Made by a program: the position numbers and the translations under genes
Notes under the pieces: model-generated
What the model was told of the DNA's origin: nothing
What the model saw: the letters and a program-made list of their open reading frames with translations, nothing else
Databases searched by the model: none
Source: Dictyostelium discoideum
Taxonomy: Eukaryota
NCBI GenBank assembly: GCA_000004695.1
Contig: CM000154.2
Location: forward strand, 3,200,001-3,264,000
Direction: 5' to 3'
DNA: 64,000 nt
Shown here: positions 3,632 to 64,000 of the stretch, one piece after another
Position numbering within the stretch: position 1 is the first letter of the stretch
Layout: each line of letters starts with the position of its first letter

Positions 3632-4266
3632 CTAAATAATTAAAATTGTCGAGAATAAAATTATAGATAAAATAAAATTTATATTGGTCTTTATGGATTC
3701 ATTTTTGATTTCATTGTTAATTAAACTATTACCACCAATTTTACCATTAATTGTAATGTTAACAAATTGTTGTTGTTGTTCAGTTTGATTAATATTAAAA
3801 TTTGAAGGTTCTACAAAACATGAAATCGATGTTGAATTTATAAATGTAGAGTTTAAACATTTACTTTTACCAACTGTAATTAAATCAATTTCATTATAAA
3901 ATTCATTACCAAAAATTGTAAAAATTCCACCAATTGATGAATTCGAAATCGTTGAATTTAAAACTAATGGGGGATAATATGATATTGAAATGTTATACTT
4001 TTCATCTTTACCATTAAATTTGATTTTACAAAGTTGATCAAATGAACCTTCTAATTTAATATCACATGCAATAGTTAGTTTATAAATGAGCAATTGTAAA
4101 CTTGTTTATTTGAAAAGCAATATACAGATGTATTGTAAATTGTATTTTCATTAAAATTTTCACTGATAATCAATAATTCACCACCAGTGGAGTTGAAAAC
4201 AGTGGATTGATTTACAAAATTAATCAATGGTCTAATATCAACATTGTAGTTTACCAAATTTATCAA
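3632..4266 (-). CDS. 3' part of a gene for an N-glycosylation-sequon-rich secreted or membrane glycoprotein with a hydrophobic C-terminal tail (GPI or TM). Two ORFs in different frames overlap at 4075-4093, implying a frameshift or sequencing error.
   Basis: ORFs 3632..4093 and 4075..4266 are both dense in NxS/T sequons and Cys, and end in [14 protein letters not shown] stop lies immediately upstream of 4266 with a possible acceptor (atattag), so further exons probably lie upstream. Confidence 0.3.
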
Positions 4267-4527
4267 ATTCAGTTAGAGGGACAATTGATACTAGATTATT
4301 AAAATCAAATAATCCAACCGGTTTTAATCAAATTAATCAAAAAAGATATTGAAAATAAAATGAAATTAAGATCTAAAATCCAAAATCAAATATCAATTGA
4401 TTATTCAATTTGGTCACCACCCAACCAATACCAATTTTAATGTCAAATAATAATAATAATTTAAATTTTAAAAAATTATTCAATAGATATTGAAATAAAA
4501 AAAAAACAAAAAAACTATTTTATTAAA

Positions 4528-5682
4528 CTACCCAACTACACCTACGTCAACACCTGAATAACTAATTATTATTCTTGTGCAACTTGATAAACTTTCATTT
4601 ATTTTACTGCCATATAGATTTCTAAAAAATCTATAAAGAACCAAAGGAGTGAGGAATAGGAAATTGACTTTGAAAAGTATTGGAGCTAATGAGAGTGAGG
4701 AAACAATGAACCAAGATCTATCTAAATGAGGATTAACTAAAAAACTTGGAAATGGAATTTTGTTTAAAATTTTCTTTACCTTTTCATCATAAGTTTGTTT
4801 GAAATGATGTTGATTTGCAATTGATAAAATACCACTAGATATACTTACAGCTTGAGTGTATGCCAATCTATATATTTTGTTATTTGATATTGGTTTTCTA
4901 AATCTTGATGTTAGCACCATAAAAAAATATCCAAATAAATATCCACCTGCAAATTCAAGTAAAAGTTTCTCTCTTACACGCTCTTTTTCAATGTAATCAC
5001 TACTCTTATAAAGAGCAGAAATGAATCTACTAATGATGACTATATCAGATTTTTTTGTACAATATTTTGAATATTCTGCTGTACCACGATCTGATGGTCC
5101 ATTTAAATAGTTTAATTGTTGAGGTAATTCAATTGGTGGTAAATTATTAGCTTGTCTATATTTAATTGTAAGTTTAATGATTAATTTATAGAATGCAGCT
5201 GGATCAATACTATAGTTTGTAACTGCATAGTATTTAAATGGATTTGATATATTATTTGATTTTCTGCCTACTCTTTCAACACGTTTATACCATGATGGAT
5301 ATTGATTCGGATCGGTTGAAGGGGAATCAATACTACCACATTGATTATGTTTCATTAAATAGTCTATACAATATTGGTATATACCACTTTCAATTAATTT
5401 TGAACTTACAATTGCATGTTCACCAAATGTTTTGAATATAAAATGATATGCATCCTTATCACTAAGTTGATAAATGATTTTCTTTGAAATTAAATTATAA
5501 TCTTCTTTTGTTAAACGACAATATACTGAATTATATAATACTGGTACTTCATCAATTAACTGAGCTGGACATTTATAATTAAAATCATAACTTGTGAGTT
5601 CATAAAAAAAAAGTGCTATTGACATAAAATAAATAATTCTTAAAGTTTTAGAATCTTTTTTAATAAATTCTTCTTCTTTTTT

Positions 5683-5753
<71 letters not shown>

Positions 5754-6144
5754 CTTTATTATCATTATTATTATAATTATTATTTTTATTATTATTATCA
5801 TCATTATTATTTTTATTATTATTATTAAGACTTTCTAAATCTTGTTTAGTTTCAAATGGTGTTTTAAAAATAAAAGGATTTTTTAAAATTTGTTGTTCAT
5901 TATTAATATTTAATTTTGAATCTTCTTTTTCATTAAATTTTTTAAAACCAGATTCCATTGATAACGAATCACTATTGTTATTTTCGTTTTTTTTTTCTTT
6001 TTCTTTTTCTTTATTTAAATCTTTAGTAGGTTTGAAACCAAATGATCTATAATATAAACCACTATTTTTTGATATTAATTTATTGTTGAAAAATCTACTA
6101 AGATTTTTTATTTTTGAAATCTGCATTTTTTTAATTATCACCAA
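4528..6144 (-). CDS. Hypothetical 538-aa protein with predicted TM segments and an internal poly-Asn; paralog of the adjacent gene
   Basis: Long ORF that shares blocks with ORF 6289..7908: [38 protein letters not shown]. Confidence 0.6.
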
Positions 6145-11028: not shown

Positions 11029-12298
11029 TTCCAGTAATAATAAAACCTTTACTCTTCTCTCAAATAGAGATATAGAAATTTGTATTGATGAAAATAATAA
11101 TGAGTTTATTGAATGTAAGTTTTATTGATATAATAAATTTTTTTTTTTTTAAAATGAATGATATATCTTCAGATTATTCTAATTACAAAATATAGATGAA
11201 TATATAAAGTTTTACATCTCAATAGATAGTGATTCATTCAAATTAGATGATAATGATTGTATAGCATTAAAAGACATTAGTGATATTTCAACAAAATTAA
11301 AAAATCAATTACCTTCAAATGTAATGCTATTGGATGGATTTAATCAAAAATTAACACCAGGTTTACTACCAGATGGTATTGAATCATTATATTTAGGTGA
11401 TATTAAATATGAATTAATGATTGGTTCAATTCCTAATACTGTAACGAGTGTCTATTTATTAGATGGATTCAATCATAAATTAGTGCCAGGTATATTACCA
11501 AAAAGTGTTTATTCTTTATATTTAGGTGATATAAACCGAAAATTAAAAATTGGTTCAATTCCTAACACTGTAACGTGTGTTCATTTATTGGATGGATTTA
11601 ATCAAATATTAACACCAGGTATAATACCAGATGGTGTCAAATGGTTGTATTTACATGATATAGAACAGGAGTTGATAATTGGTTCAATTTCAAGCACTGT
11701 AAAGAATATATGTTTAGAGGATGGATTTAATCAAAAATTAACACCAGGTATATTACCAGATGGTATTGAATGGTTGTATCTACATGATATAGAACAAGAA
11801 TTAATAATTGGTTCAATTCCTAATACTGTAAAGAATGTATATTTAGAAAATGGATTCAATCAAAAATTAATACCAGGTATATTACCAAATAGTGTTGAAT
11901 GGTTGTTTTTAGGTGAAATTCAAAAAGAATTAATGATTGGTTCAATTCCTAATACTGTAATCCATGTCACTTTATTTGATGTATTTAATCAAAAACTAAC
12001 ACCAGGTATATTACCAGATAGTGTTAAATGGTTGGGTTTATATGATATAGAACAAGAATTAATGGTTGGATCAATTCCTAATACTGTAGAGGGTATCTAT
12101 TTATTTGATGGATTCAATCAAAAATTAACACCAGGTATATTACCAGAAGGCGTTGAATGTTTGTTTTTATATGATATTAAACAAGAATTAATGATCGGTT
12201 CAATTCCTAATACTGTAAAGAAAGTATTTATTTATAAAAGTTTTAAACAACAAATTGAACCTTATGTTTCTGATATTGTTAAAATAACTAAATATTAG
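11024..12298 (+). CDS. FNIP-repeat protein, short 5' form. Exons 11024..11114 and 11196..12298; exon 1 corresponds only to the tail of the B-box-family exon 1.
   Basis: Exon 1 MISSNNKTFTLLSNRDIEICIDENNNEFIEC, then GTAAGT donor and atatag acceptor, in-frame junction (phase 1) into about 14 FNIP repeats (GFNQKLTPGILPD..GSIPNTV). Confidence 0.55.
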
Positions 12299-13100: not shown

Positions 13101-15446
13101 ATGATATCCAATCAAAATATAATAAATAATAATATTGATAATAATAAAAAGTGTACACTTCACCCAAACAAAGATATAATATTCTTTTGTTTAGATTGTA
13201 AATTAATACCATGTTGTATTCAATGTATATCAAGTAAAGGTGAACATCATGGTCATAAAACTGATCCATTAGAATCAACTTCAAATATTCTTTCATTAAT
13301 GAATAATTTTAAAGATGATGTATATCAAAAAGTAATTGACAGAATAGAAACCAATGAAAAAATATTAAAACAATCAAATGATAAATACAATGAAATTCAA
13401 TCACAATTTGATATTAATAATAATTCATTAAAAAAAGAAATTAAAAAAATTCATGATATCATTTCAATCATAGAATTAGATATTCAAAAACAATTAGAAA
13501 CAACCTTTGAAAATAATACATTAATAAATACAATTATAACTTCTTCAATCAATAATGATAATCAAATACTTTCAACTATAATTAATTATAAAAATGAAAA
13601 TGAAAATGAAAATGAAAATGAAAATGAAAATGAAAATGAAAATGAAAATGAAAATGATAATATTACAACCATTGAAAAATTAAATCAAATTATAAAATTT
13701 AATGATCAACAAATTTATGATAATGGAGATGATTTTATTATCGATAGAGATACTATTAAAATTATTAAACAATATCAACAATCATTAATAGTATTAAATA
13801 ATAATAATAATATCGATTATTCAAATAAATTAAATGAATACGATAATCAAATCATTCATTTCAATAATCAGATAATTGATGATATTAAAAATAATTTAAA
13901 ATCAATTTATACCTTAGATAATTGTAGATTTAAAATTGAATTTGATGAAAATAATAATAAATTTTTTAAATGTAAGCTTTAAACAGTTTTTTTTTTTAAT
14001 AAATGATTTTCACATTACTAATTACCAAATATAGGTGATATTAAACAAGAATTAATAATTGGTTCAATTCCTAATACTGTAACGAATATATCTTTAGAAG
14101 ATGGATTCAATCAAAAATTAACACCAGGTATATTACCAGATAGTGATGGATGGTTGAGTTTAGGTGATATTAAACAAGAATTAATAAATGGTTCAATTCC
14201 TAATACTGTAACTCATGTCTCTTTAAAAGATGGATTCAATCAAAAATTAACACCAGGTATATTACCAGATAGTGTTAAATCCTTGTTTATAGGTGATATT
14301 AAACAAGAATTAATGATTGGTTCAATTCCTAATACTGTAACTCATGTCTATTTAGATGATGGATTCAATCAAAAATTAACACCAGGTATATTACCAGATA
14401 GTGTTGAATCGTTGTATTTAGGTGATATTAAACAAGAATTAATAATTGGTTCAATTCCTAATAATGTAACTCATGTCTATTTAATAGATGGATTCAATCA
14501 AAAATTAACACCAGGTATATTACCAGATAGTGTTAAATCGTTGGATTTAGGTGATATTAAACAAGAATTAATAAATGGTTCAATTCCTAATACTGTAAGG
14601 AGTGTCTCTTTAAAAGATGGACTCAATCAAAAATTAACACCAGGTATATTACCAGATAGTGTTAAATTGTTGTATTTAGGTGATATTAAACAAGAATTAA
14701 TAATTGGTTCAATTCCTAATACTGTAACTCATGTATCTTTATTTGATGGATTCAATCCAAAATTAACACCAGGTATATTACCAGATAGTGTTGAATGGTT
14801 GTATTTAGGTGATATTAAACAAGAATTAATAAATGGTTCAATTCCTAATACTGTAAGGAGTGTCTCTCTAAAAGGTGGATTCAATCAAAAATTAACACCA
14901 GGTATATTACCAGATAGTGTTGAATCGTTGGATTTAGGTGATATTAAACAAGAATTAATAATTGGTTCAATTCCTAATACTGTAGCTCGTGTCTCTCTAT
15001 TGGATGGATTCAATCAAAAATTAACACCAGGTATATTACCAGATAGTGTTAAATTGTTGTATTTAGGTGATATTAAACAAGAATTAATAATTGGTTCAAT
15101 TCCTAATACTGTAGCTCGTGTCTCTCTATTGGATGGATTCAATCAAAAATTAACACCAGGTATATTACCAGATAGTGTTGAATGGTTGGATTTATGTGAT
15201 ATTAAACAAGAATTAATGATTGGTTCAATTCCTAATACTGTAGCTCGTGTCTCTTTAAAAGATGGATTCAATCAAAAATTAACACCAGGTATATTACCAG
15301 ATAGTGTTGAATCCTTGTATTTAGGTGATATTAAACAAGAATTAATGATTGGTTCAATTCCTAATACTGTAAAGGAAGTTGATGTTTCCGAAAGTTTTAA
15401 ACTTCAAATTGAACCTTATGTCTCAAAAAATGTAAAAATAATTTAA
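13101..15446 (+). CDS. B-box zinc finger / coiled-coil / FNIP-repeat protein, the apparently intact family member. Exons 13101..13971 and 14035..15446.
   Basis: Exon 1 encodes a Cys/His B-box-like motif ([35 protein letters not shown]) plus a coiled-coil/low-complexity region with (EN)n. GTAAGC donor, atatag acceptor, phase-1 junction into about 19 tandem FNIP repeats ending ..QIEPYVSKNVKII. Confidence 0.65.
13598..13663 (+). repeat. (GAAAAT)n hexanucleotide repeat encoding (EN)n; copies also at about 17297..17368 and 34798..34850
   Basis: Direct reading. Confidence 0.9.
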
Positions 15447-37700: not shown

Positions 37701-40700
37701 TTAAGCATCGAAATTAAAAGTATCTATTCTTGAATGCATTGTTTGTTTGCTTCTCATTACAATTGTTAAAGCTTTAGCGGCTACATTAATATCTTTTTTA
37801 TTTATATCTTCAGATTCAGTTGATTCGCATTGTTTTTCTTTTTCTTTTTCCTTTTCTTTATCTTTATCGGATGATTTTGAAGTTTTCTTTTCTCTTCTAC
37901 TACCAGATTTTGAAGGGGTAATATCCAATTCAATACCACTTGGAGTAGTGATGGTGATTGAAGAGGTATTAGAATTTTCAGATTGTTCAGAGATAGTGGT
38001 GATGGAACTAGAATCATCAGTATTTTCTTTTGTACCTTTTAGACGTCTTCTTTGTTTAAAAGCATCACCATCTCTAACTGATTGCATGATATCTTCAACC
38101 ATACCACCATCACCAACAGAAGTTGAACTTGAAGCCAATGGATTTTTATTATTTGTACTTGAGGCTATTTTACCATTCATTCTCTTTAATTGTTGAGCTT
38201 TCTTTGCTTTTGCTTCATCCCTTTTAATTGCACGTTCAGCAGCTTCTTTATCTCTTTGGAAATCTTTATAACATTTATCAAACATAACGATGAAACGATT
38301 GATTGTAACAAAGAATTCCTCAGAGGGTATTTTAGATTCTTCACCAAATAACACTGCCAACTCTTGGAAATTCTTTTCTGCTTCTTGAAATTGATCAAAT
38401 GCAATCTTAATTTCAATATTTGCATCCTTTATGAAATCATCCATAGTTGAGAAGAAATAAGACTCCTCTTTACTTCTCTTCATTTTACCAATACCATTAT
38501 TAACGGCGTCTAAATCCTTTTTAAGTAAATTTAAATCTGCACTAATTGTATTCATTGAGATTTTAACACATTCTTGAACACCTGATAAATCATCCATAAA
38601 TTTGAGAGAATCTGGGAATTTTTGCTCCAATTCACTAATAATGTAAACTAAAAGATTTGATTTATTATTTGCAGTTTTAGTATCGGCCAATTTAAGTAAT
38701 GCATCCAATTTGAAACCAAAACAATCACCTCTTGCGGTACCACCATTTAAAAAGTTACCAATGATTAAAACCACTTCCATAACCTTTAAAAAGTTTTTAC
38801 TATTTTTTATATCTTTAATTGTTTTTGTGAATAACTCTAAATCTGGTTTAATCTCTTTAAGTTTATCTGGGAATAAAATTTTCAAATAGAATGATTTAAC
38901 TCTTTCTGCTAAACTACTAACTGAATCCATTTCCAATAGAAAGTGTTCTGCTTTGGTTAACATTTTCAATTCACCATCTTTTTTAAGATAATCTTTAATC
39001 GCTTCCATATCTTCATCAGTTGGTAAATATTGTTCCAATGCTTTCAATGATTCCATCGTAAAGATATCTTCATCCAATGTGTATAATGCAGTTTTAATCT
39101 CTTCTAGTGGACATTTAAACTTTGAGAGATAGATTGCTAAATTTTGAGATTTCTTTGGATCAATAACTGATACTGTACCTGGTTTAGTTGATGATGTTGA
39201 TTTCTTATCTGATGCTTCCAATTTCTTTTGAGAATTTGCTTCTGGTGCAAAGAATAAATTTTCAATCTCACCAACATTTAACCAATCCGTCTTTATAGTA
39301 CCAAGATTTGTAAATATAGTTTCACCCAATTTCTTATTTGGAATTTTTGTCCATTGGAATTGTTTAACTTTTGTAGTTGGTTTTGATACTGTGAATTTTG
39401 GTGCATTTGCTGGTGGTTTATTTGAATTAAATAATCCAAATCCACCTCCACCTGGTGGTGGTGGTGGTCCGCCTTTACCTCCCATTGGTGGTGGTGGTGG
39501 TGGTCCACCTCCCATCATTGGAGGTGGTGGTGGTGGTGGTGGTCCTCCTCCTCCCATCATTGGAGGTGGTGGTGGTGGAGGTGGTCCTCCTCCCATCATT
39601 GGTGGAGGTGGTGGTGCTGGTGGTGCAGGTGGTGGTGTTGTTACAATTGGTTCTTCTTTAATAATTTGTGTTGGTTCTGGTGTTAATGTTGATTCTATAT
39701 TTTGTTGTTGTGGTTGTTGTTGTTGTGCTACTTCAACTTGTGATTTAAAATCATTTGATAAACTATCAGAAGATGAAGATGATAAATTTGATTTTGATTT
39801 TTCTTTTAATTGTGATGATGAAATTGGTGGTTTTGATGATTTTGGATTTAAAGGTGGTTTTGATGTTTGTTGTTGTTGTTTACGTGGTGATTCATGATGT
39901 GGTGAAGATTCTTCAGGTGTATTAATAACATTTATATGATCATCACCATCACCACCAGGTGGTGAAAAGAAATTTGAATCAATTCTTTTCATTTGACCAC
40001 GTAATTTAATAATTTCTTGATCTTTTTGTTTTACAGTATTAAACATATTACTTTTGAGTACAGATGATTCATGACTTCTAGAGGAGAGTTCTTGATTTGC
40101 AATGTTTAAATCAAAGTTTGCTTTTTTCAATTGATCTTTAACCTTTGCCAATTCTTCTATATTCTTTTGAAATTCAGATTGAAGTGCAACAGAGGGTGCA
40201 GTACTTGCCAAAAGATCCTCTAAACTAACTTTACCATCGTCATCACCAATCATTGGTTTATTGACAGAGATTTGTAATACCAACTTTTCAATGAGGAACC
40301 AACTTAACATACCCACTTCAGTATCGGAAGATATTGATAACAATGATTGGAGTATTGCCAATAGTGGATGATGTAATCTGTCTTTGGCCTGTTTATAGAT
40401 TTCATTAAAGATCACTTGAGGATCATTGATATCAATATCTAAATCCTCGAAACGTTCCGATAACTCCTCTTGATCAGCACGTTGTTCATCTTCATAAACA
40501 TCTATTTGTGTGAGTAAATCGGGAGCCTCTTCATAGGGAATATTTTTATTTACACTAATTACCTCATCCAATCCCAATCTTGTAAACTCAGTTCTCAATT
40601 GAATACGTTCATCGATTTCCTCTGATGAATTTACAATACCATTGACCAAAGTTAAACAAGTTGTTAAATACTCCTTATCTGATGAATTCATTACTTTCTT

Positions 40701-41478
40701 CATTGATTCCACTAAAAATGTAAATCTAAAACGTTCCTTACGAACTTGTTTAAAGTGTGTCATTGCCTCTAGAATCAATTGATAACCTTTCTCTGAGATC
40801 ATACATATCGCTGTCAATATTTCAAATACACTCGATCTTGTATCCGCTTTTGGTGTATCCATTGATGTGATTAACCTAATCATTGAATTGGGTGTTGCTA
40901 TCGCTTTCTCTATACCATACTTTGAGTTTAACAATGATAATAAACATGTTACCGCTAACGATTGTAATATAACATCACTATCCTTTTGACCATTCCTTTC
41001 AATGAATGCTAATACATTCAATAATGCCTCTATACCATTACAATCTATCAATGACTTTGACCATGCTGATGGTTTACTCTGTAATGATGAACATAATTGT
41101 GCCAAAATTTCAATATTTGGTAATAAATTAATTGTATTTACAAAAAATTCTGGTGTATCAACTGCTTTACCTTTCTAAAAAAAAAAAAATAAAAAAAAAT
41201 AAAAAAAAATAAAAAAATAAAAATTTTATATTAATAAAATAATAATATTAGTAATTATAAAATAAAAAAAAAAAAAAAAAAAAACATACATCATCAAATT
41301 TATCAGCTGATTTTGAATTTGTTGAATTATTTCCATCTGGTTGAAGACTTGAATATGCCATAGAATAACGTTTATTTGCTTTGGCTGGTAATGAAGATAA
41401 AAAATCATTCTCTGACTCTGTTGATCCTTTTTCGTCTGAATCTTTATCTTTTTTCTTTCTACCAAAAATTCTATTCAT
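37701..41478 (-). CDS. Formin (GBD/FH3 - coiled coil - FH1 poly-proline - FH2). Exons about 41290..41478 and 37701..41174.
   Basis: FH1 is runs of GGGPPPPPPPPMMGGG. The FH2 core is VVLIIGNFLNGGTARGDCFGFKLDALLKLADTK. N-terminal armadillo-like GBD/FH3. The upstream exon MNRIFGRKKKDKDSDE...KFDD has a GTATGT donor and ttttttag acceptor, and joins in frame to KGKAVDTPEFF.... Confidence 0.8.
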
Positions 41479-55443: not shown

Positions 55444-55901
55444 CTAAAACCCACCTCTCCAATTTATATGTGTATCCATTTATATATCAAAAGCTCTGAA
55501 TAAGATAATAAATTAGTTGGTATTTGTATTTATTTATTTATTTATTTTTATTATTTTTTTTTTTTAATTTTTTTAATTTTTATTTTTTTTTTTTTTTAAC
55601 CTCTTCAAATTTTTTTTTTCATATTTTAATTATAATAATAACACTTATACCCCTTTCAAAATATAAAAATATAAAAATATAAAAATATAAAAATATAAAA
55701 TTTACCCCACTCACTCATAAATACCTCATAAAAGTTATTCAATTAAAATTTAAAATAATTAATTAATTTAATATTTAGTCACAAAATAAAAACAAAAAAA
55801 AAACAATAAAAACAAAAAAAAAAAATACTAGTTTATAAAAGTTCATTTTAAAAAGTAAAATAATAAAACAATAAAACAACAATAATAATAATAAAAAGGA
55901 A

Positions 55902-56218
55902 ATGATAAATGGAGAACAAACAATGGTTGAAGATGAACTTCCTGACCAAGGTAAACCAATGTCAGATGAATCAGCAGATATTGATATTAAAGATTTAAAA
56001 GTTGGTGAATCTATTGGTAGTGGTGCCTATGGTATAGTATATAGAGGTACATTGTTTAATTCAGATGTAGCAATAAAGAAAATTCAAAATGAAAAAAGTG
56101 AAAAGAATGAATTTATAAAATATTTAAAAAGAGAAGTAGCAGTTTTAAAGTAAGTTAAATTCAATATTATTATTATTATTATTAACCTTTAATAATTTAA
56201 AGTAACATTAATTAATTT

Positions 56219-56262
<44 letters not shown>

Positions 56263-57939
56263 TAGAAATATTCAACATCCAAATATAGTTCAATTTATTG
56301 GAGTTTATTATGAACCATTAGCAAGTCCATCTTTAGTAAATAGATTATTAAATTCAAGTTCAACATGGATTGTAACTGAATATATTGGCGGTGGTAATTT
56401 ACATGAAAGAATTAAAGATACTAAAAAAGATTTTCCAATTGAATTAAGAATTAAATTATCTTTAGATATTGCTTTAGCAAGTATGTTTTGTTTTTTTTTT
56501 TTTTTTTCATATAATATATTCTTTTTTTAAAATATTAATAATAAATTTAATTTTTTTAAAAAATATATAGTGGCATATTTACATAGTAGAGATATTATAT
56601 TTAGAGATTTAAAAAGTAAAAATATTTTAATTGATGATTCATCTTCACCAATTAGAGGAAAAGTTTGTGATTTTGGGTAAGTTTTTAATTTTTATTATTA
56701 TTAAAAAAAAGAATTAATATATATTAATATTTAATAAATTTTTTTTATTTTTTTTTTATTTTTAAAAGTTTTGCAAGAATTTTAAATAAAAAACAACAAG
56801 GTAATAGACATTTATCAATTTGTGGAACAGACTCTATAATGGCACCAGAATTAATATTAGGTATGGAATATGATGAATCAGTGGATATATTTTCATTTGG
56901 TGTAGTATTGTTAGAGATGATATTACGTAAAAAAGTATCGAAAGTTTTAGAGAGAGGACCACAATCAGCCTTTGAAATTGATCAAGATTCAGCACGTCAA
57001 TTAATACCAGATGATATTCCAGTACTTTATTCAGATTTAGCATTGGATTGTATAAAATATCAACCAGAGGAGAGACCAAATTTCTCACATATCATTCATG
57101 TATTGAAACAATTGACTTCATTATTCCCTGTGGTTCATACATTTGATAATCCATTATCACCAACTTCATCACCAATCACTCCACGTAAAAATTCTTTAAA
57201 TTCACCTTTTACAAAATCAATGAGAATGAACTCTTTTGATTTTAACCTATCAAATATAGTTTCTTCAACAAGCGTTCAAAATAATTTAAAAAGTCAAAAT
57301 TTAAATTTTACTTTATTAAATTTAAATCAAATTAATAATCAAGATTTAAATGAAAATAATAATAATAATATAAGTAATAATATAAATAATATAAATAATA
57401 ATAATAATAATTTAAATGATTGTAATAGTAATTTAAGTAGTAGTACAAGTACAATATATAATGATTCACAACAAACAATAATTGATGAAGATGAATTAGA
57501 TAAAGAAGAAGAAGAAAATAGAAATAAAGTTAATAATTTAAAAGAGAAAATGTTATTGGTAATGGGTGAATTTGATATTTATATTAATAAAGTTGGTAAG
57601 GAATTATTATTAGTATCGGAAGAGGATCATATCTCTCAAAAATATGATGAATGTAGAAAAGTTATCGAAATTAAAAAGGTTTTAGGTGAAGTTATTGAAA
57701 GTGATATGAGTAATAGTCAACAATCAAATACTCCAAGAAAAAATTCAAATGTTACAAATTCCCGTGTCGCTTTGTTTTTGAAATCAATGGAACGTTCACT
57801 CAATGAAATTTATTCAAGCTCTGATGTATTAAAACAAAGAATTGTAAAAGAAGATGATTTGGTTGAATCTTTATTATTGGCTAGAGTGGTTTCAAAAATA
57901 AAAAAAATTCATTTATCATCATTGGATATTAATAATTAA
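55902..57939 (+). CDS. Serine/threonine (TKL-like) protein kinase with an Asn-rich C-terminal extension. Exons 55902..56149, 56266..56480, 56571..56676, 56769..57939.
   Basis: GSGAYGIVY and VAIKK (subdomains I-II) in exon 1, HRDLKSKNILID and DFG in exon 3, APE and DIFSFGVVLLEM in exon 4. All junctions use GTAAGT/GTATGT donors and AG acceptors, with phases matching. Confidence 0.7.
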
Positions 57940-58177
57940 TCAATAACAAATAACAAATAATAATAATTTTGCGTATTTTTTTTTTTTTTTTTTCATAAAA
58001 ATATATATATATAAATTAAATATAATTTGATTAATCAAATATATAAAAAGTAAATAGTAAATAATAACAAATTGTACAATAATTAGTAAATAAAAATTAA
58101 TTTTTAAAATTAATTTTCTTTTTTTTTATTTTTTTTTTTTTATTAAAACATAAATCAGTTTACTAATACTTAATGAT

Positions 58178-59285
58178 TTAAGATGAAATATAATTTCTTA
58201 CAATGTTTACAGTATTAGGAATTGAATCAATTATTAGTTGTTGTTTAATATCATATAAATACAACGATTCAACACTATCTGGTAATATACCTGGTGTTAA
58301 TTTTTGATTGAATCCATCAAATAAATGGACATGAGTTACAGTATTAGGAATTGAACCAATTATTAATTCTTTTTTAATATTACCTATATACAACCATTTA
58401 ACGCTATCTGGTAATATACCTGGTGTTAATTTTTGATTGAATCCATCTTCAAAACAGACACTCGTTACAGTATTAGGAATTGAACCAATCATTAATTCTT
58501 GTTTAATATCATATAAATACAACGATTCAACACCATCTGGTAATATACCTGGTGTTAATATTTGATTGAATCCATCTAAGAGCATTACACTTGATGGTAA
58601 TTGATTTTTTTTTAATTTTGATAAAATATCACAATTGTCTTTGAATGCTATACAATCCTTATTATCTCCCCATGAAAGTCTATCTGTATTAATATAAAAT
58701 TTTAAATCATAATCTAAAATTGGTAATTAGAATAATGATTTAAAATTGTCAATGAGAAAAATTTTAAAATTTTTAATATGCATATTAACAAAACTTACAC
58801 TTAATAAATTCATTGTTATTTTTATCGATTTCTATTTTGAATCTATCATTACTTTTATTTAGGGAATAAATTGATTTTAAATTATTTTTAATATCATCAA
58901 TTATTTGATTATTGAAATGAATGATTTGATTATCGTATTCATTTAATTTATTTGAATTATTGATATTATTATTATTATTTAATACTATTAATGATTGTTG
59001 ATATTGTTTAATAATTTTGATTGTATCCCTATCAATAATAAAATCATCTCCATTATCATATATTTGTTGGTCATTAAATTTTAAAATTTCATTTAATTTT
59101 TCAATGGTTGTAATAATTTCATTTTCATTTTCATTTTCATTTTTATTTTCATTTTTATTATTATTATTATTAATTATAGTTGAAAGTATTTGATTATCAT
59201 TATTGATTGAAGAAGTTATAATTGTATTTATTAATGTATTATTTTCAAAGGTTGTTTGTAATTGTTTTTTAATATCTAATTCTAT
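58178..59285 (-). pseudogene. 5'-truncated B-box-FNIP family copy on the minus strand. Coiled-coil and FNIP parts are present; the B-box part is absent.
   Basis: Minus strand encodes a homolog of the family exon-1 tail (58800..59285, including (EN)n). The ~95-bp intron runs from the GTAAGT donor at about 58795 to the acag acceptor at about 58700. Six FNIP repeats follow (58178..58585). Homology stops abruptly near 59285, about 400 bp from the tRNA-Met cluster. Confidence 0.5.
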
Positions 59286-59521
59286 GATTGAAATGATATG
59301 AATTTTTAAAATTTTTTTTTTAAATTTTTTTTATTTTCACAATAGATTTTAATGCAAAAAACAGTTTTTCTTTTTTATTATACCATGGTTTTAAAATGCT
59401 ATTTATATAAACCAATACAGAAATATAAAAAGATTTAACTTTTTTGTGGGTTGGAAAAATTTATAATAAAAAGCTTTATGCAAAAAAGCTGGCGGACCAA
59501 TTTTTTTCAAAAAATCAACAT

Positions 59522-59580
59522 GTCAGGTTGAGTCGGTTGGGTAGTGCGTAGGTCTCATGATCATAGCCCAACTTTGAAAT
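59522..59580 (+). pseudogene. Truncated tRNA-Met-like pseudogene. It is a partial tandem duplicate of the downstream tRNA-Met including its 5' flank, and lacks a T-arm.
   Basis: Shares atcaacatgtcaggttg with the intact gene plus a ..GTAGGTCTCATGATC.. anticodon-region remnant; no GGTTCGATCC follows. Confidence 0.5.
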
Positions 59581-59686
59581 AACGCGGTTTACAACATTTA
59601 CAAAATCATTCTTAAAAAAAAAGTTGGATAACGCAATTAATTTTTTTAAAACTAATAGTGAAAATTTTTTTTTAAATCATCAACAT

Positions 59687-59759
59687 GTCAGGTTGGCTCA
59701 GTTGGTAGAGCGTAGGTCTCATAATCCTAAGGTCCAGAGTTCGATCCTCTGACTTGACA
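59687..59759 (+). tRNA. Elongator tRNA-Met (anticodon CAU)
   Basis: GTCAGGT-TG-GCTC-AGTTGGTA-GAGC-G-TAGGT-CTCATAA-TCCTA-AGGTC-CAGAG-TTCGATC-CTCTG-ACTTGAC-A. Full cloverleaf with the 31:39 U-U mismatch also seen in metazoan elongator tRNA-Met. Confidence 0.85.
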
Positions 59760-59791
59760 TTCATTTTTTGTGAAGAAGTCCCTAAAATCAA

Positions 59792-59804
59792 GGGATCGAC
59801 TCCC
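59792..59804 (+). promoter_or_regulatory. External B-box-like element about 33 bp downstream of tRNA-Met
   Basis: GGGATCGACTCCC approximates GGTTCGANTCC. It sits between the tRNA and the retroelement. Confidence 0.4.
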
Positions 59805-59965
59805 ATTTAAATTTTTTAACGAAAAACGAAAAAAGAAATAAACGAGAATTTATACATATAATAAATAAATCACTGTTATATCTTCACCGCCACATTCATT
59901 CCTCTTAATTTTACCCTTTTTTTGCTCATTAAAGCAAGGGCTATCGTCCTATATACTTTTCAACA

Positions 59966-61174
59966 ATGGCTGATGATCACTCAACTGAATTACAGTTAAA
60001 TCATACAGATAACAACACAACCAATACAAATAACACCTCCACAACCTCAACAACAAAAAACAAAAGTGCAAAAATCGACACACCTAAAAAACAAACCCCA
60101 ACAAACCAACTCTCACTAAACAAAGGACTTGATAATCAATTAGATATCATTGCACCTCCATCAATCACAAGACCACTCTCTTTCTTAGAAAAAAACAATA
60201 ACACCATCAACATTAAGTGTTACTTTAATCAACCACACATCCGTGAAGAATTAACCTCAAAAGATGACACAAGAATTCAACAAATTCACAAAAACATTCA
60301 CAAACTCTTCGAAGTTATACTGTCGCCATCAGCATTCAAAATAATTGGTGCAACTGCCTTCGTAAATTGCAACGTTGATAAATTAACTTCAATAATCAAC
60401 CTTCAAAACCAACTTGCACTAAATATCGACAAACTCAACTATAGATTCGATATATCATCAAATGATTATGCAATCATTAAAACATTCATTAAAACGTACT
60501 CACCCAAACATGCAAACGATGCAATTACAAACAACCTCACTAAATTCACCAGTTGTACATCAATTGAATCATTTACTGTCACATACTCATATGCTGTTGC
60601 GTTTAAAAGCTACATTATAACATACCATCTAATTGATCACACACACAACATTGTTGATCAAAAGATCGAACAACCATCTGGTATCACAAGATATATCAAA
60701 GCTGCAACACGTAGTGTCACTAAACACAAAATTCAACATGCAAAAAATGCAGATATGGCAACAACTATAAAAAATGCTATCACAAACCCAAACATGAACA
60801 AAAACAATCAACCACCAAAAAACAACATTAACACCCCACCAATCAACGAAATTGCAAATTCCAATCGCAATAAAAACTCACTTCAAAATAGTGGTTCAAA
60901 AGCTATACTAAATGAATCACTTGATATTAACAATCAATCCCAAAACAATAATGAAATTTCACACAAAAGTGATTCTTCAAATAATAATAACGGGAAAAAC
61001 TCATTATCAATGAGCAATCCAACCGATCCAACAATTGTACCACAAAAACCTCTACAATCTCAACCAAACAAACCAAGTGCACCAACTCCAAATCCAATAA
61101 ATACAAGAAGAAGCAGCAATGCCCTGACTACACAACCAGTCAATACTGGTGCTGCCAAACCTAGTAAGGTATGA
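59966..61174 (+). CDS. Retrotransposon ORF1 (402 aa; Thr/Asn/Pro-rich nucleic-acid-binding-type protein)
   Basis: ORF listed in the track. Its stop TGA overlaps the ORF2 start in an ATGA arrangement. Confidence 0.65.
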   Translation: MADDHSTELQLNHTDNNTTNTNNTSTTSTTKNKSAKIDTPKKQTPTNQLSLNKGLDNQLDIIAPPSITRPLSFLEKNNNTINIKCYFNQPHIREELTSKDDTRIQQIHKNIHKLFEVILSPSAFKIIGATAFVNCNVDKLTSIINLQNQLALNIDKLNYRFDISSNDYAIIKTFIKTYSPKHANDAITNNLTKFTSCTSIESFTVTYSYAVAFKSYIITYHLIDHTHNIVDQKIEQPSGITRYIKAATRSVTKHKIQHAKNADMATTIKNAITNPNMNKNNQPPKNNINTPPINEIANSNRNKNSLQNSGSKAILNESLDINNQSQNNNEISHKSDSSNNNNGKNSLSMSNPTDPTIVPQKPLQSQPNKPSAPTPNPINTRRSSNALTTQPVNTGAAKPSKV

Positions 61175-64000
61175 GCTCAAAAATCAACTTTATAACATGG
61201 AATTGTAGAGGATTCACTGAAAACGCAAACAATCAACACAATTCCTACCAAAAAGCTGTTGACACACTACAACTACTTATATCAAAACTTCCACCTCGTC
61301 CAACAATCTCAATACTCACTGAACTCAATTCATCACCATTACAACTTAAACATGATTTTCCCGATCACATCATCTCTGTCACCAAAAGAGGAAATGGTGT
61401 AATAATCATTAACCATAACCCAAACACACTCAAACTCAAACACATATCAACAATTGATGGTAGAGCTATTTTAGCAGACGTTATATTTCCAAATCAATTA
61501 CCAATTGGTATTCTTGGAATTTACGCACCAGCATCAAATAATACCATCAAAAAGAATTCATATGCAACTTCACTACAAACACTTCTCCACAACCACTCAA
61601 CAAACCCAATACCAAACCAATCCCAACATGTATCTATTATCGCAGGAGATTTCAACTGTATCCACAACGACAATTCACTATTAGATGATATTATCCAATC
61701 CTACACATACCAACACCATCTAATTGATCAAGGTGAATTTAAAAACACTCCAACTCATACACATGGTAACAGATTAGATAGAATATATACCCAATACAAT
61801 AGAATAGACCCTGAAAATATATATACACAAGTCCACCAAATTCCATCTTCATTATCAGATCATAATCCAATATCAACAACAATTTCTTCACCTTTTCAAA
61901 TAAATAAACATAAGAAAAGATGGATATTATCACCTGGTACTGCAAATGACCATGAAGCAATCAATATTATCAATCATTTAATAACTAATCACAATAACAC
62001 ATCAATCAATCAATTTACAAACTGGTCAAAAGTAAAATCAAAAATTATTAAAACTCTAAAAAACTATCAATATAACAAAGACAAACAAACTCAACGTGCA
62101 AAACAAATACTATTAGAAAAAGCAGGAAAATTCAAACATCTTGAAGAACAATGCATCGCTGAATACAATATTATATGTAACAAAAACAAATTACATCAAA
62201 ACCACACAAACATATTAAAAAAACATATAAATGGAGAAATACCTAGCAAGTATCTATCAGCAATACTAAACAAAAGATCAAAAGATGCAAAAATTGAATC
62301 AATCCAATATGGCAACATCATTACATCCGACCCCGACCAAATTGAAAATGCGTTTGTTGAATTCTACACAAATCTATATAGCTTACAAATATGTTGTCCA
62401 ATTACTCACCAGCTCATGCTAAACACATGGCCCATCATAAAAAATGAATATTGGAATGGTTTAGACTCACCATTTATACAAGATGAAGTTGAAGCTGCAA
62501 TTAAAACCTGTAACCCCAACAAATCACCCGGTCCAGATGGCGTTACAAATGCATTCTACATTAATCATTTAAACCAAGTTAAACCAATTCTCACTACATT
62601 ATTCAACGATATACTAGAAAATCCTCACCACATCACAACAGAATTCACCGAAGGTCTTATACACACAATTTACAAGAAAGGCAACCCCTTACTCATATCA
62701 AATCGTCGTCCCATTACACTTCTTAACACTGATTACAAGATCCTCTCAAAAGTAATCAATGCACGTCTTCTGAGAATACTTCCTTTCATCATCAACAACA
62801 ACCAAACTGGTTTCGTACCCCACAGATTCATCATAGACAACATCATCAACATCAATGAATTAATAAACTACCTCAAATCTAAAAACCTCCCTGGTATCAT
62901 CACACTATTTGACTTCTTTAAAGCATTTGATTCTATCTCTCACGATAGCATTAAAAGAACATTAATTCATATTGGAATACCAATAAAATTAATAAATTTA
63001 ATCCACAAGCTATTATCTGACTCACAAGCAAAAATTTCAATTAATGGTAAAACGACCAGAAAATTCGATATTAAAAGAGGTGTAAAACAAGGTGACCCAA
63101 TCTCAGCCACTTTATTTGTAATTGTAATTGAAATATTAGCAAGAACAATAAATGCAGACAATTCAATAATTGGATTACCAATTTCACCCAATCCACAAAT
63201 TAAAATCAAATTTACCCAATTTGCAGACGACTCTACAACATACAACATCAACTACGAACAACAACAACAATCAATAATCAAACATTTCGATAATTTCTGC
63301 GCTTCAACATCATCATCTTTAAATTTTGACAAAAGTGCAATTATAGAAATCAACCCCCACAAAATCACTGATAAACACTTAATAAACAACATTCCACAAT
63401 CAAAAAGAATTCCAATAACCAAAAAAGATCAATCAGAAAGAGTTCTTGACTATTTCTTTAATCATAATGGTTTACATAGGAAATTACCAGAAACAATGAA
63501 AACACTGATTAAATCATTAGTGCTATGGAAAACTATTGGTACAACATTAAAAACAAAAACAACCATCATAAACACCTACTCACTATCACCAATAACATAT
63601 TTATCATACCTTGAAGAATTTACAAAAGATGAAGAAATTCAAATTAATAAATTAATCTCATGGTTTATGAATTCTCCCGCAAATTCTGAATCACCAACTC
63701 TCAATACCAATTCCATTGAAAACAACACATCAACCATCCATTCACGTGCAAAAATACCTTTGATGTGTTATGATAGATCATTAAAACCATTAAAAGAAGG
63801 TGGTTGGGGTATGTGGAATATACAATTACGACAAGTTGCTCAAAAGATTTGGATATACAACAGATTTTTACAAATGCATAAATCTGCAAACAATTCAATA
63901 TACATGATAAGTTGGATGGATCAAATCATCAACAAATCAATCTCTTCTCCATACCTTATAAAAATAAAAAAAGAATGGGAAAACTATGCAACTCAAATTG
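61171..64000 (+). CDS. Retrotransposon ORF2 (APE-type endonuclease plus reverse transcriptase), 3' partial (over 940 codons with no stop before the window end)
   Basis: By hand translation, the frame starting at ATG 61171 reads MSSKINFITWNCRGF... with no stop I could find before the window end. It includes the SDHNPI endonuclease motif (about 61860), and PGPDG, FDFFKAFDSISH and QFADDSTTY (the FADD equivalent of YxDD) RT motifs (62530-63230). It is absent from the ORF track only because it has no stop inside the window. Confidence 0.75.
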   Translation, partial: MSSKINFITWNCRGFTENANNQHNSYQKAVDTLQLLISKLPPRPTISILTELNSSPLQLKHDFPDHIISVTKRGNGVIIINHNPNTLKLKHISTIDGRAILADVIFPNQLPIGILGIYAPASNNTIKKNSYATSLQTLLHNHSTNPIPNQSQHVSIIAGDFNCIHNDNSLLDDIIQSYTYQHHLIDQGEFKNTPTHTHGNRLDRIYTQYNRIDPENIYTQVHQIPSSLSDHNPISTTISSPFQINKHKKRWILSPGTANDHEAINIINHLITNHNNTSINQFTNWSKVKSKIIKTLKNYQYNKDKQTQRAKQILLEKAGKFKHLEEQCIAEYNIICNKNKLHQNHTNILKKHINGEIPSKYLSAILNKRSKDAKIESIQYGNIITSDPDQIENAFVEFYTNLYSLQICCPITHQLMLNTWPIIKNEYWNGLDSPFIQDEVEAAIKTCNPNKSPGPDGVTNAFYINHLNQVKPILTTLFNDILENPHHITTEFTEGLIHTIYKKGNPLLISNRRPITLLNTDYKILSKVINARLLRILPFIINNNQTGFVPHRFIIDNIININELINYLKSKNLPGIITLFDFFKAFDSISHDSIKRTLIHIGIPIKLINLIHKLLSDSQAKISINGKTTRKFDIKRGVKQGDPISATLFVIVIEILARTINADNSIIGLPISPNPQIKIKFTQFADDSTTYNINYEQQQQSIIKHFDNFCASTSSSLNFDKSAIIEINPHKITDKHLINNIPQSKRIPITKKDQSERVLDYFFNHNGLHRKLPETMKTLIKSLVLWKTIGTTLKTKTTIINTYSLSPITYLSYLEEFTKDEEIQINKLISWFMNSPANSESPTLNTNSIENNTSTIHSRAKIPLMCYDRSLKPLKEGGWGMWNIQLRQVAQKIWIYNRFLQMHKSANNSIYMISWMDQIINKSISSPYLIKIKKEWENYATQI

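Follow-up and report, generated by a model that had tools for sequence, protein, structure and literature searches.

A TRE3 retrotransposon, most likely TRE3-B, downstream of a tRNA-Met(CAU) gene on chromosome 5 of Dictyostelium discoideum

We analyzed a 64,000-nucleotide stretch of Dictyostelium discoideum DNA (GenBank assembly GCA_000004695.1, contig CM000154.2, positions 3,200,001 to 3,264,000 of the forward strand), referred to below as the window. The 3' end of the window almost certainly carries a full- or near-full-length copy of the D. discoideum L1-type non-long terminal repeat (non-LTR) retrotransposon TRE3, most likely of the subfamily TRE3-B, which lies 50 bp downstream of a tRNA-Met(CAU) gene and in the same orientation. 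Its second open reading frame (ORF2) encodes an apurinic/apyrimidinic endonuclease (APE), detected as Pfam Exo_endo_phos at residues 8-231 (E 7.3e-13), followed by a reverse transcriptase (RT), detected as RVT_1 at residues 502-725 (E 5.1e-30). The insertion is flanked by a target-site duplication and is missing from another strain of the species.

The best matches of ORF2 are D. discoideum TRE3 proteins (99%), which agrees with the first-pass annotation, where TRE3 had been proposed from the same-orientation insertion downstream of a tRNA. A protein search with ORF2 returned D. discoideum proteins of 96-99% identity, then D. discoideum families of ~41% and ~35% identity, and beyond these generic proteins resembling long interspersed nuclear elements (LINEs) at <=27%. 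No TRE5 protein was present among the matches at E<=1e-10. The deposited D. discoideum 'pol' protein AAD43057.1/Q9Y1H5 (1275 aa) is 99.4% identical, and the AX4 gene model DDB_G0289805 (P0118) is 99.8% identical without gaps and has the same extra codon that is unique to this copy. Residues 64-363 of this model (300 residues) are also 100% identical to ORF1. DDB_G0289805 adjoins kinY on chromosome 5, and kinY is the neighboring kinase of the element. The shared codon and the shared neighbor indicate that the window is the kinY / tRNA-Met / DDB_G0289805 region of D. discoideum chromosome 5, or that of a near-identical strain. The element is an already catalogued copy of a known and thoroughly described family.

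Structure of the element and its tRNA-Met target

The features of the locus are as follows. The last two entries lie outside the window and are given in window-equivalent coordinates from a second assembly (L005, described below).

59686..59760, + strand: tRNA-Met(CAU), the RNA polymerase III (Pol III) gene targeted by the element (ARAGORN; Rfam RF00005, 64.8 bits)
about 59739-59749, + strand: internal B box of tRNA-Met(CAU) (sequence)
59765-59770, + strand: T-run terminator of tRNA-Met (sequence); the element starts downstream of it
about 59792..59804, + strand: external B-box-like element GGGATCGACTCC (sequence); the motif is also present in the empty-site strain L003
59798..59810, + strand: 5' copy of the 13-bp target-site duplication GACTCCCATTTAA (both copies read in L005)
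59811..59819, + strand: 9 nt, ATTTTTTAA, between the duplication and the first base common to other copies (5' ends of five copies compared)
59820..59965, + strand: 5' untranslated region (UTR) of the element, most likely TRE3-B (homology to other copies begins at 59820-59822)
59966..61174, + strand: ORF1, 402 aa, rich in Asn, Thr and Gln (ORF list, translation)
61171..64000, + strand: ORF2, first 943 of 1276 codons, running past the window end (translation, Pfam)
64001-65122, + strand: CCHC motif, ORF2 stop, 3' UTR and poly(A) (L005)
65123-65135, + strand: 3' copy of GACTCCCATTTAA, directly after the poly(A) (L005)

The tRNA-Met(CAU) gene and the external B-box-like element that had been noted at first pass are both present. 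The start given there for the locus, 59522, coincides with the first base of a degenerate partial tRNA duplicate (about 59500-59577 with its 5' flank) and not with the functional tRNA. A shift in base composition was placed 60-100 bp past the tRNA; the shift is real and sharp, and the boundary is slightly closer, 50-59 bp beyond the 3' end of the tRNA. From bin 59800-59999 onwards, as far as the end of the window, GC skew ranges from -0.35 to -0.68 and AT skew from +0.13 to +0.49; outside the element the DNA has 10-30% GC and no consistent skew. The 5' end of the element is at 59811 as defined by the target-site duplication (50 bp from the tRNA) or at 59820 as defined by homology to other copies (59 bp). 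The 5' ends of the five copies compared vary upstream of AAAGAAATAAACGAG, and heterogeneous 5' ends are usual for non-LTR elements. The 9 nucleotides ATTTTTTAA are probably untemplated or heterogeneous 5'-junction nucleotides. We dropped the idea that the B-box motif is a piece of the element's own 5' end: the motif is missing from the tandem and off-target copies described below and is therefore host sequence. The concept of an external B box has been described previously (PMC5911963).

Translation confirmed ORF1 and an ORF2 whose start codon, ATG 61171-61173, and the ORF1 stop codon, TGA 61172-61174, overlap in an ATGA arrangement (junction sequence, AAGGUAUGAGC). The ORF1 product had no match in the Pfam scan. 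ORF2 runs for 943 codons to 63999 without a stop codon or frameshift, and the five motifs quoted in support of its APE and RT domains are all present (TWNCRG at residue 9, SDHNPI at 229, PGPDG at 453, FDFFKAFDSISH at 580 and FADD at 684). The frame is open through the RT domain, as had been anticipated when the element was judged probably intact at least to that point, and ORF2 is missing from the ORF list for the reason given there, which is that the list skips ORFs running off the window. ORF2 is in the -1 frame relative to ORF1 and has its own ATG. A TAA at 61165-61167, two codons upstream of this ATG, closes the frame and leaves just 7 nt for any frameshift into ORF2, and no slippery heptamer was found near the ORF1/ORF2 junction. 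Because the ORF2 frame is closed so shortly upstream, with no slippery motif nearby, ORF2 would most likely be translated by termination-reinitiation at the AUGA overlap.

The element and its target share an orientation, as both ORFs and the tRNA are on the + strand. The 50-bp spacer falls within the position expected for TRE3 (about 40-150 bp downstream of a tRNA), and both position and orientation agree with the published definition of TRE3 (PMC5911963, PMC5006619). For 39 of the 43 TRE3-B copies, the distance to a tRNA is 34-188 bp (PMC5006619 Table 1). Two related copies at other loci follow the same pattern: one begins 73 bp after tRNA-Lys(UUU) (L001) and one begins 70 bp after tRNA-Thr(AGU) (L008), each in the orientation of its tRNA and just past a B-box-like motif. 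By blastn, the window element is 98.9% identical to the L001 copy over 4183 bp, starting at 59822. Tandem copies were found at two loci (L001 and L006). In L001, three partial (TTT)TAGTATTACCAAAA repeats surround the junctions of the tandem TRE3-B copies (5811-5828 and 11159-11222), which suggests sequential insertions into one target with a complicated duplication history.

The statement that this is the only clear mobile element in the window is not contradicted by our results, which cover TRE3-like sequences and the ten long ORFs of the window, other transposon classes not having been searched exhaustively. No other TRE3-like sequence was found in the window by tblastn and blastn with three TRE families as queries. 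In the Pfam scan, seven of the ten long ORFs matched cellular families (RdRP, peptidase S28, FNIP repeats, HEAT, BRCT and formin), three had no match, and none had a transposon-type domain.

Filled and empty alleles of the insertion site

The 3' end of the element was read in a second D. discoideum assembly (GCA_054883475.1, CM142511.1), whose corresponding locus we designate L005. Where the two were compared, from 55900 to 60873, L005 and the window agree at every base. The complete element in L005 is about 5.29 kb long (5289 bp from window position 59820 to the last base before the poly(A)), and its ORF1 (402 aa) and ORF2 (1275 aa) are both intact. Beyond the window end, ORF2 contains a CCHC motif, CPICNNEMNNDPYGHLFFNC, at residue 1056, and no Pfam zinc-finger model was significant in this ORF2. 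The 3' UTR is about 110 nt and is followed by a 14-nt poly(A). The first-pass annotation had expected a C-module or oligo(A) at the 3' end; the C-module is a feature of TRE5-A, and what is found here is a short UTR and oligo(A). The copies of the target-site duplication GACTCCCATTTAA, at 13897-13909 and 19222-19234 of L005, match perfectly (13/13), and the duplication begins inside the external B box GGGATCGACTCC. The combination of poly(A) and target-site duplication expected of TRE3 is found in L005 and not within the window.

A more divergent D. discoideum strain (GCA_054859355.1; L003) shares the tRNA-Met and the external B box with the window, uninterrupted and with no element. When the pre-insertion sequence was rebuilt with one copy of the duplication, it was collinear with L003 over both the external B box and the duplication. 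Because of the poly(A), the perfect duplication and the empty site in L003, the insertion is, as far as can be judged from sequence, a genuine and relatively recent retrotransposition. It appears young because another strain lacks it.

The degenerate partial tRNA-Met copy lies 165 bp upstream of the functional gene and consists of ~20 nt of 5' flank and tRNA positions 1 to ~58, with several mismatches and an indel. L003 has a single tRNA-Met, which bears the upstream flank that the pseudo-copy bears in the window. The 118-bp spacer between the pseudo-copy and tRNA-Met (59556-59673) has no second copy in any sequence compared. The AX4 model DDB_G0289805 joins ORF1 and ORF2 via artificial introns, and its first 46 residues map weakly (51%) to 59474-59719, which comprises the pseudo-copy and the start of tRNA-Met; this exon over the tRNA is an annotation artefact. 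We also considered whether ORF1 is unusually divergent, as it appeared to be about 93% identical to other copies. This was attributed to gene models that jump from ORF1 to ORF2 and was discounted because the AX4 model is 100% identical over 300 residues and the nucleotide differences are evenly spread.

At the orthologous tRNA-Met locus of Dictyostelium citrinum (L004, 12817-13300), a ~230-bp fragment lies ~250 bp downstream of the tRNA. It has a poly(A) at its end and GTGTTAGATTG repeats on its flanks, and seems to have arisen when a 5'-truncated retroelement independently targeted this tRNA. Its final 32 nt match the 3' end of a TRE3-A-like element (97%); an attempt to class the fragment was dropped, as a match of these last 32 nt is too little. 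Elsewhere in the window, ARAGORN called a 78-nt tRNA-Ser(GGA) at 39486-39563. This call is probably a false positive because its position is inside an ORF for a 1134-aa formin with FH2, FH3 and GBD domains that is encoded by the other strand (37701-41105).

Alternative readings and subfamily assignment

Several points weigh against the reading given above. The 3' third of the element lies outside the window, and its apparent intactness is deduced from L005 together with the length of the AX4 model. At this locus the window differs from L005 solely by 12 substitutions clustered in 350 bp (60874-61225), at the 3' end of ORF1 and the start of ORF2, and by an in-frame AAT codon at 63273-63275 that L005 does not have and that is found only in the window and the AX4 model. 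Because of these differences, the window and L005 are either non-identical alleles or one of them contains repeat-assembly errors. Targeting is not absolute: a TRE3-B copy with a complete 5' end (L007, 2058-8441) lies inside a ketoacyl-synthase (polyketide synthase-like) coding region, with no tRNA detected within 2 kb, and is an off-target insertion. The TRE3-B call, although the most likely one, rests on length, on one dictyBase label attached to a degenerate relative and on the architecture of the ORF junction. Target recognition, the mechanism of translation and current activity are all matters that we infer. As separate observations, the variant bases at 60874-61225 are a mosaic of states present in other copies, a pattern suggestive of gene conversion among copies or of an artefact of repeat assembly, and the L007 copy is itself broken by ~1.1 kb of foreign DNA at 4199-5330.

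These differences raise the possibility that the element is a dead, decaying relic, or an assembly consensus pasted over a degenerate copy, rather than a potentially retrotransposition-competent element. The 12 clustered sites and the one codon could reflect collapsed-repeat assembly, and only 9 of the 43 TRE3-B copies in AX4 are full length (PMC5006619 Table 1). Nevertheless, we consider this unlikely: in two independent assemblies neither ORF is interrupted, the AX4 model is long enough to imply an ORF2 of 1276 codons, the element is 98.9% identical to other full copies, the insertion is young and missing from another strain, and the duplication is perfect. The element is probably intact and recently inserted.

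With regard to the subfamily, the element very probably belongs to TRE3-B. This was judged by four indirect tests. It is quite unlikely that the element is instead TRE3-A, which we take to be Tdd-3. TRE3-A is the commonest TRE3 (67 copies, 13 full length; PMC5006619), and the ~5289-bp length of the element depends on the placement of its heterogeneous 5' end. However, this length, measured without the poly(A) and subject to a variation of ~10 bp at the 5' end among copies, is 10 bp from that of TRE3-B (5279 bp) and 60 bp from that of TRE3-A (5229 bp); the published length of TRE3-C is 4734 bp (PMC5006619).

Another abundant family, with an ORF2 about 41% identical to that of the window element (P0011; tandem copies in L002), fits TRE3-A better. 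Its members are 5221-5232 bp long, and its ORF2 lacks an ATG until past codon 202 and shares ~80 nt with ORF1, to which it is in the -1 frame, in agreement with the report that TRE3-A ORF2 'requires a -1 frameshift' from ORF1 (PMC5911963). This presumed TRE3-A family has the same architecture, target region downstream of tRNA genes and orientation rule as the window element, but its ORF1 is 416 aa rather than 402 aa, and its ATG-less ORF2 contrasts with an ORF2 that has its own ATG in the ATGA overlap. The protein DDB_G0291686 (P0198), named 'TRE3-B ORF2' by dictyBase (PMC12405889 Table 2), is 84% identical to the ORF2 of the window element and 43% identical to that of the L002 family, and its accession number is consecutive with that of DDB_G0291688, a 98% relative. 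Finally, the old GenBank entry AAC27746.1, 97.6% identical to this ORF2, is labelled merely 'similar to HC domain of Tdd-3 and DRE', which implies a protein related to Tdd-3 but not Tdd-3 itself.

The window element resembles TRE3-B in its length, two ORFs, APE-RT-CCHC ORF2, oligo(A) tail, and location within the published distance range, 50 bp downstream of a tRNA and in the same orientation. There is no substantive difference, apart from the extra codon at 63273-63275 and a few substitutions in this copy. TRE5-A (DRE) is likewise a non-LTR element with two ORFs, an APE-RT-zinc finger ORF2 and Pol III-dependent targeting of tRNA genes, but TRE5 elements insert some 50 bp upstream of the tRNA, are oriented opposite to it and have modular A/B/C UTRs (PMC5911963). 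TRE3 is classed under L1 (PMC5911963, Table 1) and shares with L1-clade LINEs an ORF2 with APE and RT domains, target-primed reverse transcription, a poly(A), variable 5' ends and duplications of ~10-20 bp. It differs from them in that its site choice follows tRNA genes and its ORF1 has no similarity to L1 ORF1 (PMC5006619); moreover, the putative first-strand nick site of this element, GAGTC^GATCC, is not the T-rich L1 consensus. Although several unrelated Dictyostelium elements are concentrated near tRNA genes, Skipper-2 in this very downstream region (PMC5006619), there is only a negligible chance that we are dealing with a different tRNA-associated element (TRE5, or the LTR elements Skipper-2 or DGLT-A) or with a host gene carrying an RT domain, as the element has neither an LTR nor an integrase or RNase H, the order of APE and RT together with the poly(A) and duplication is a non-LTR architecture, the position and orientation are not those of TRE5 (PMC5911963), the element is multi-copy at 96-99% identity, and the presence/absence polymorphism rules out a conserved host gene.

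Insertion mechanism and significance

The insertion can be described with the established non-LTR model, target-primed reverse transcription, from which the following steps are taken. The ORF2 endonuclease would first cut the bottom strand, within the external B box and at the left boundary of the duplication (5'-GGGAGTC^GATCC-3' on that strand), and the reverse transcriptase would use this nick to prime cDNA synthesis on the poly(A) RNA of the element. A second nick in the top strand, 13 bp away, would give rise to the 13-bp duplication, and joining of the 5' end would add the 9 extra nucleotides. By analogy with TRE5-A, for which an interaction of ORF1 with TFIIIB and a dependence on the B box have been reported (PMC5006619, PMC5911963), the target would be chosen via the complex of Pol III factors, with TFIIIC on the B box or external B box, and not via a DNA motif. 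TRE3 thus probably reads TFIIIC bound to one of these boxes, and a nick site that is not T-rich fits positioning by protein contacts rather than by sequence.

As the duplication starts inside the external B box, an intact external B box stays with tRNA-Met, and the two have been parted from their original downstream DNA. For this reason an effect on TFIIIC occupancy or on tRNA-Met expression is conceivable. A joint reading, in which the element is a rare retrotransposition-competent TRE3-B source, the insertion alters TFIIIC occupancy or tRNA-Met expression relative to the empty allele, and the partial duplication of tRNA-Met records an earlier retroelement-mediated rearrangement, is very unlikely to hold as a whole.

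In annotations, this region is best masked or given the label of a TRE3-B retrotransposon rather than that of a host gene. The locus provides one further textbook example of the targeting of tRNA genes in the compact Dictyostelium genome. It has the modest additional merits of a clean pair of filled and empty alleles among D. discoideum strains and of a duplication from which the insertion point can be placed in the external B box. To our knowledge, positioning relative to TFIIIC has been studied experimentally for TRE5-A and hardly for TRE3. For TRE5-A, a genetically tagged element has been employed (PMC3159450). The allele pair and the mapped insertion point could serve as a natural test case for the positioning of TRE3 with respect to TFIIIC.

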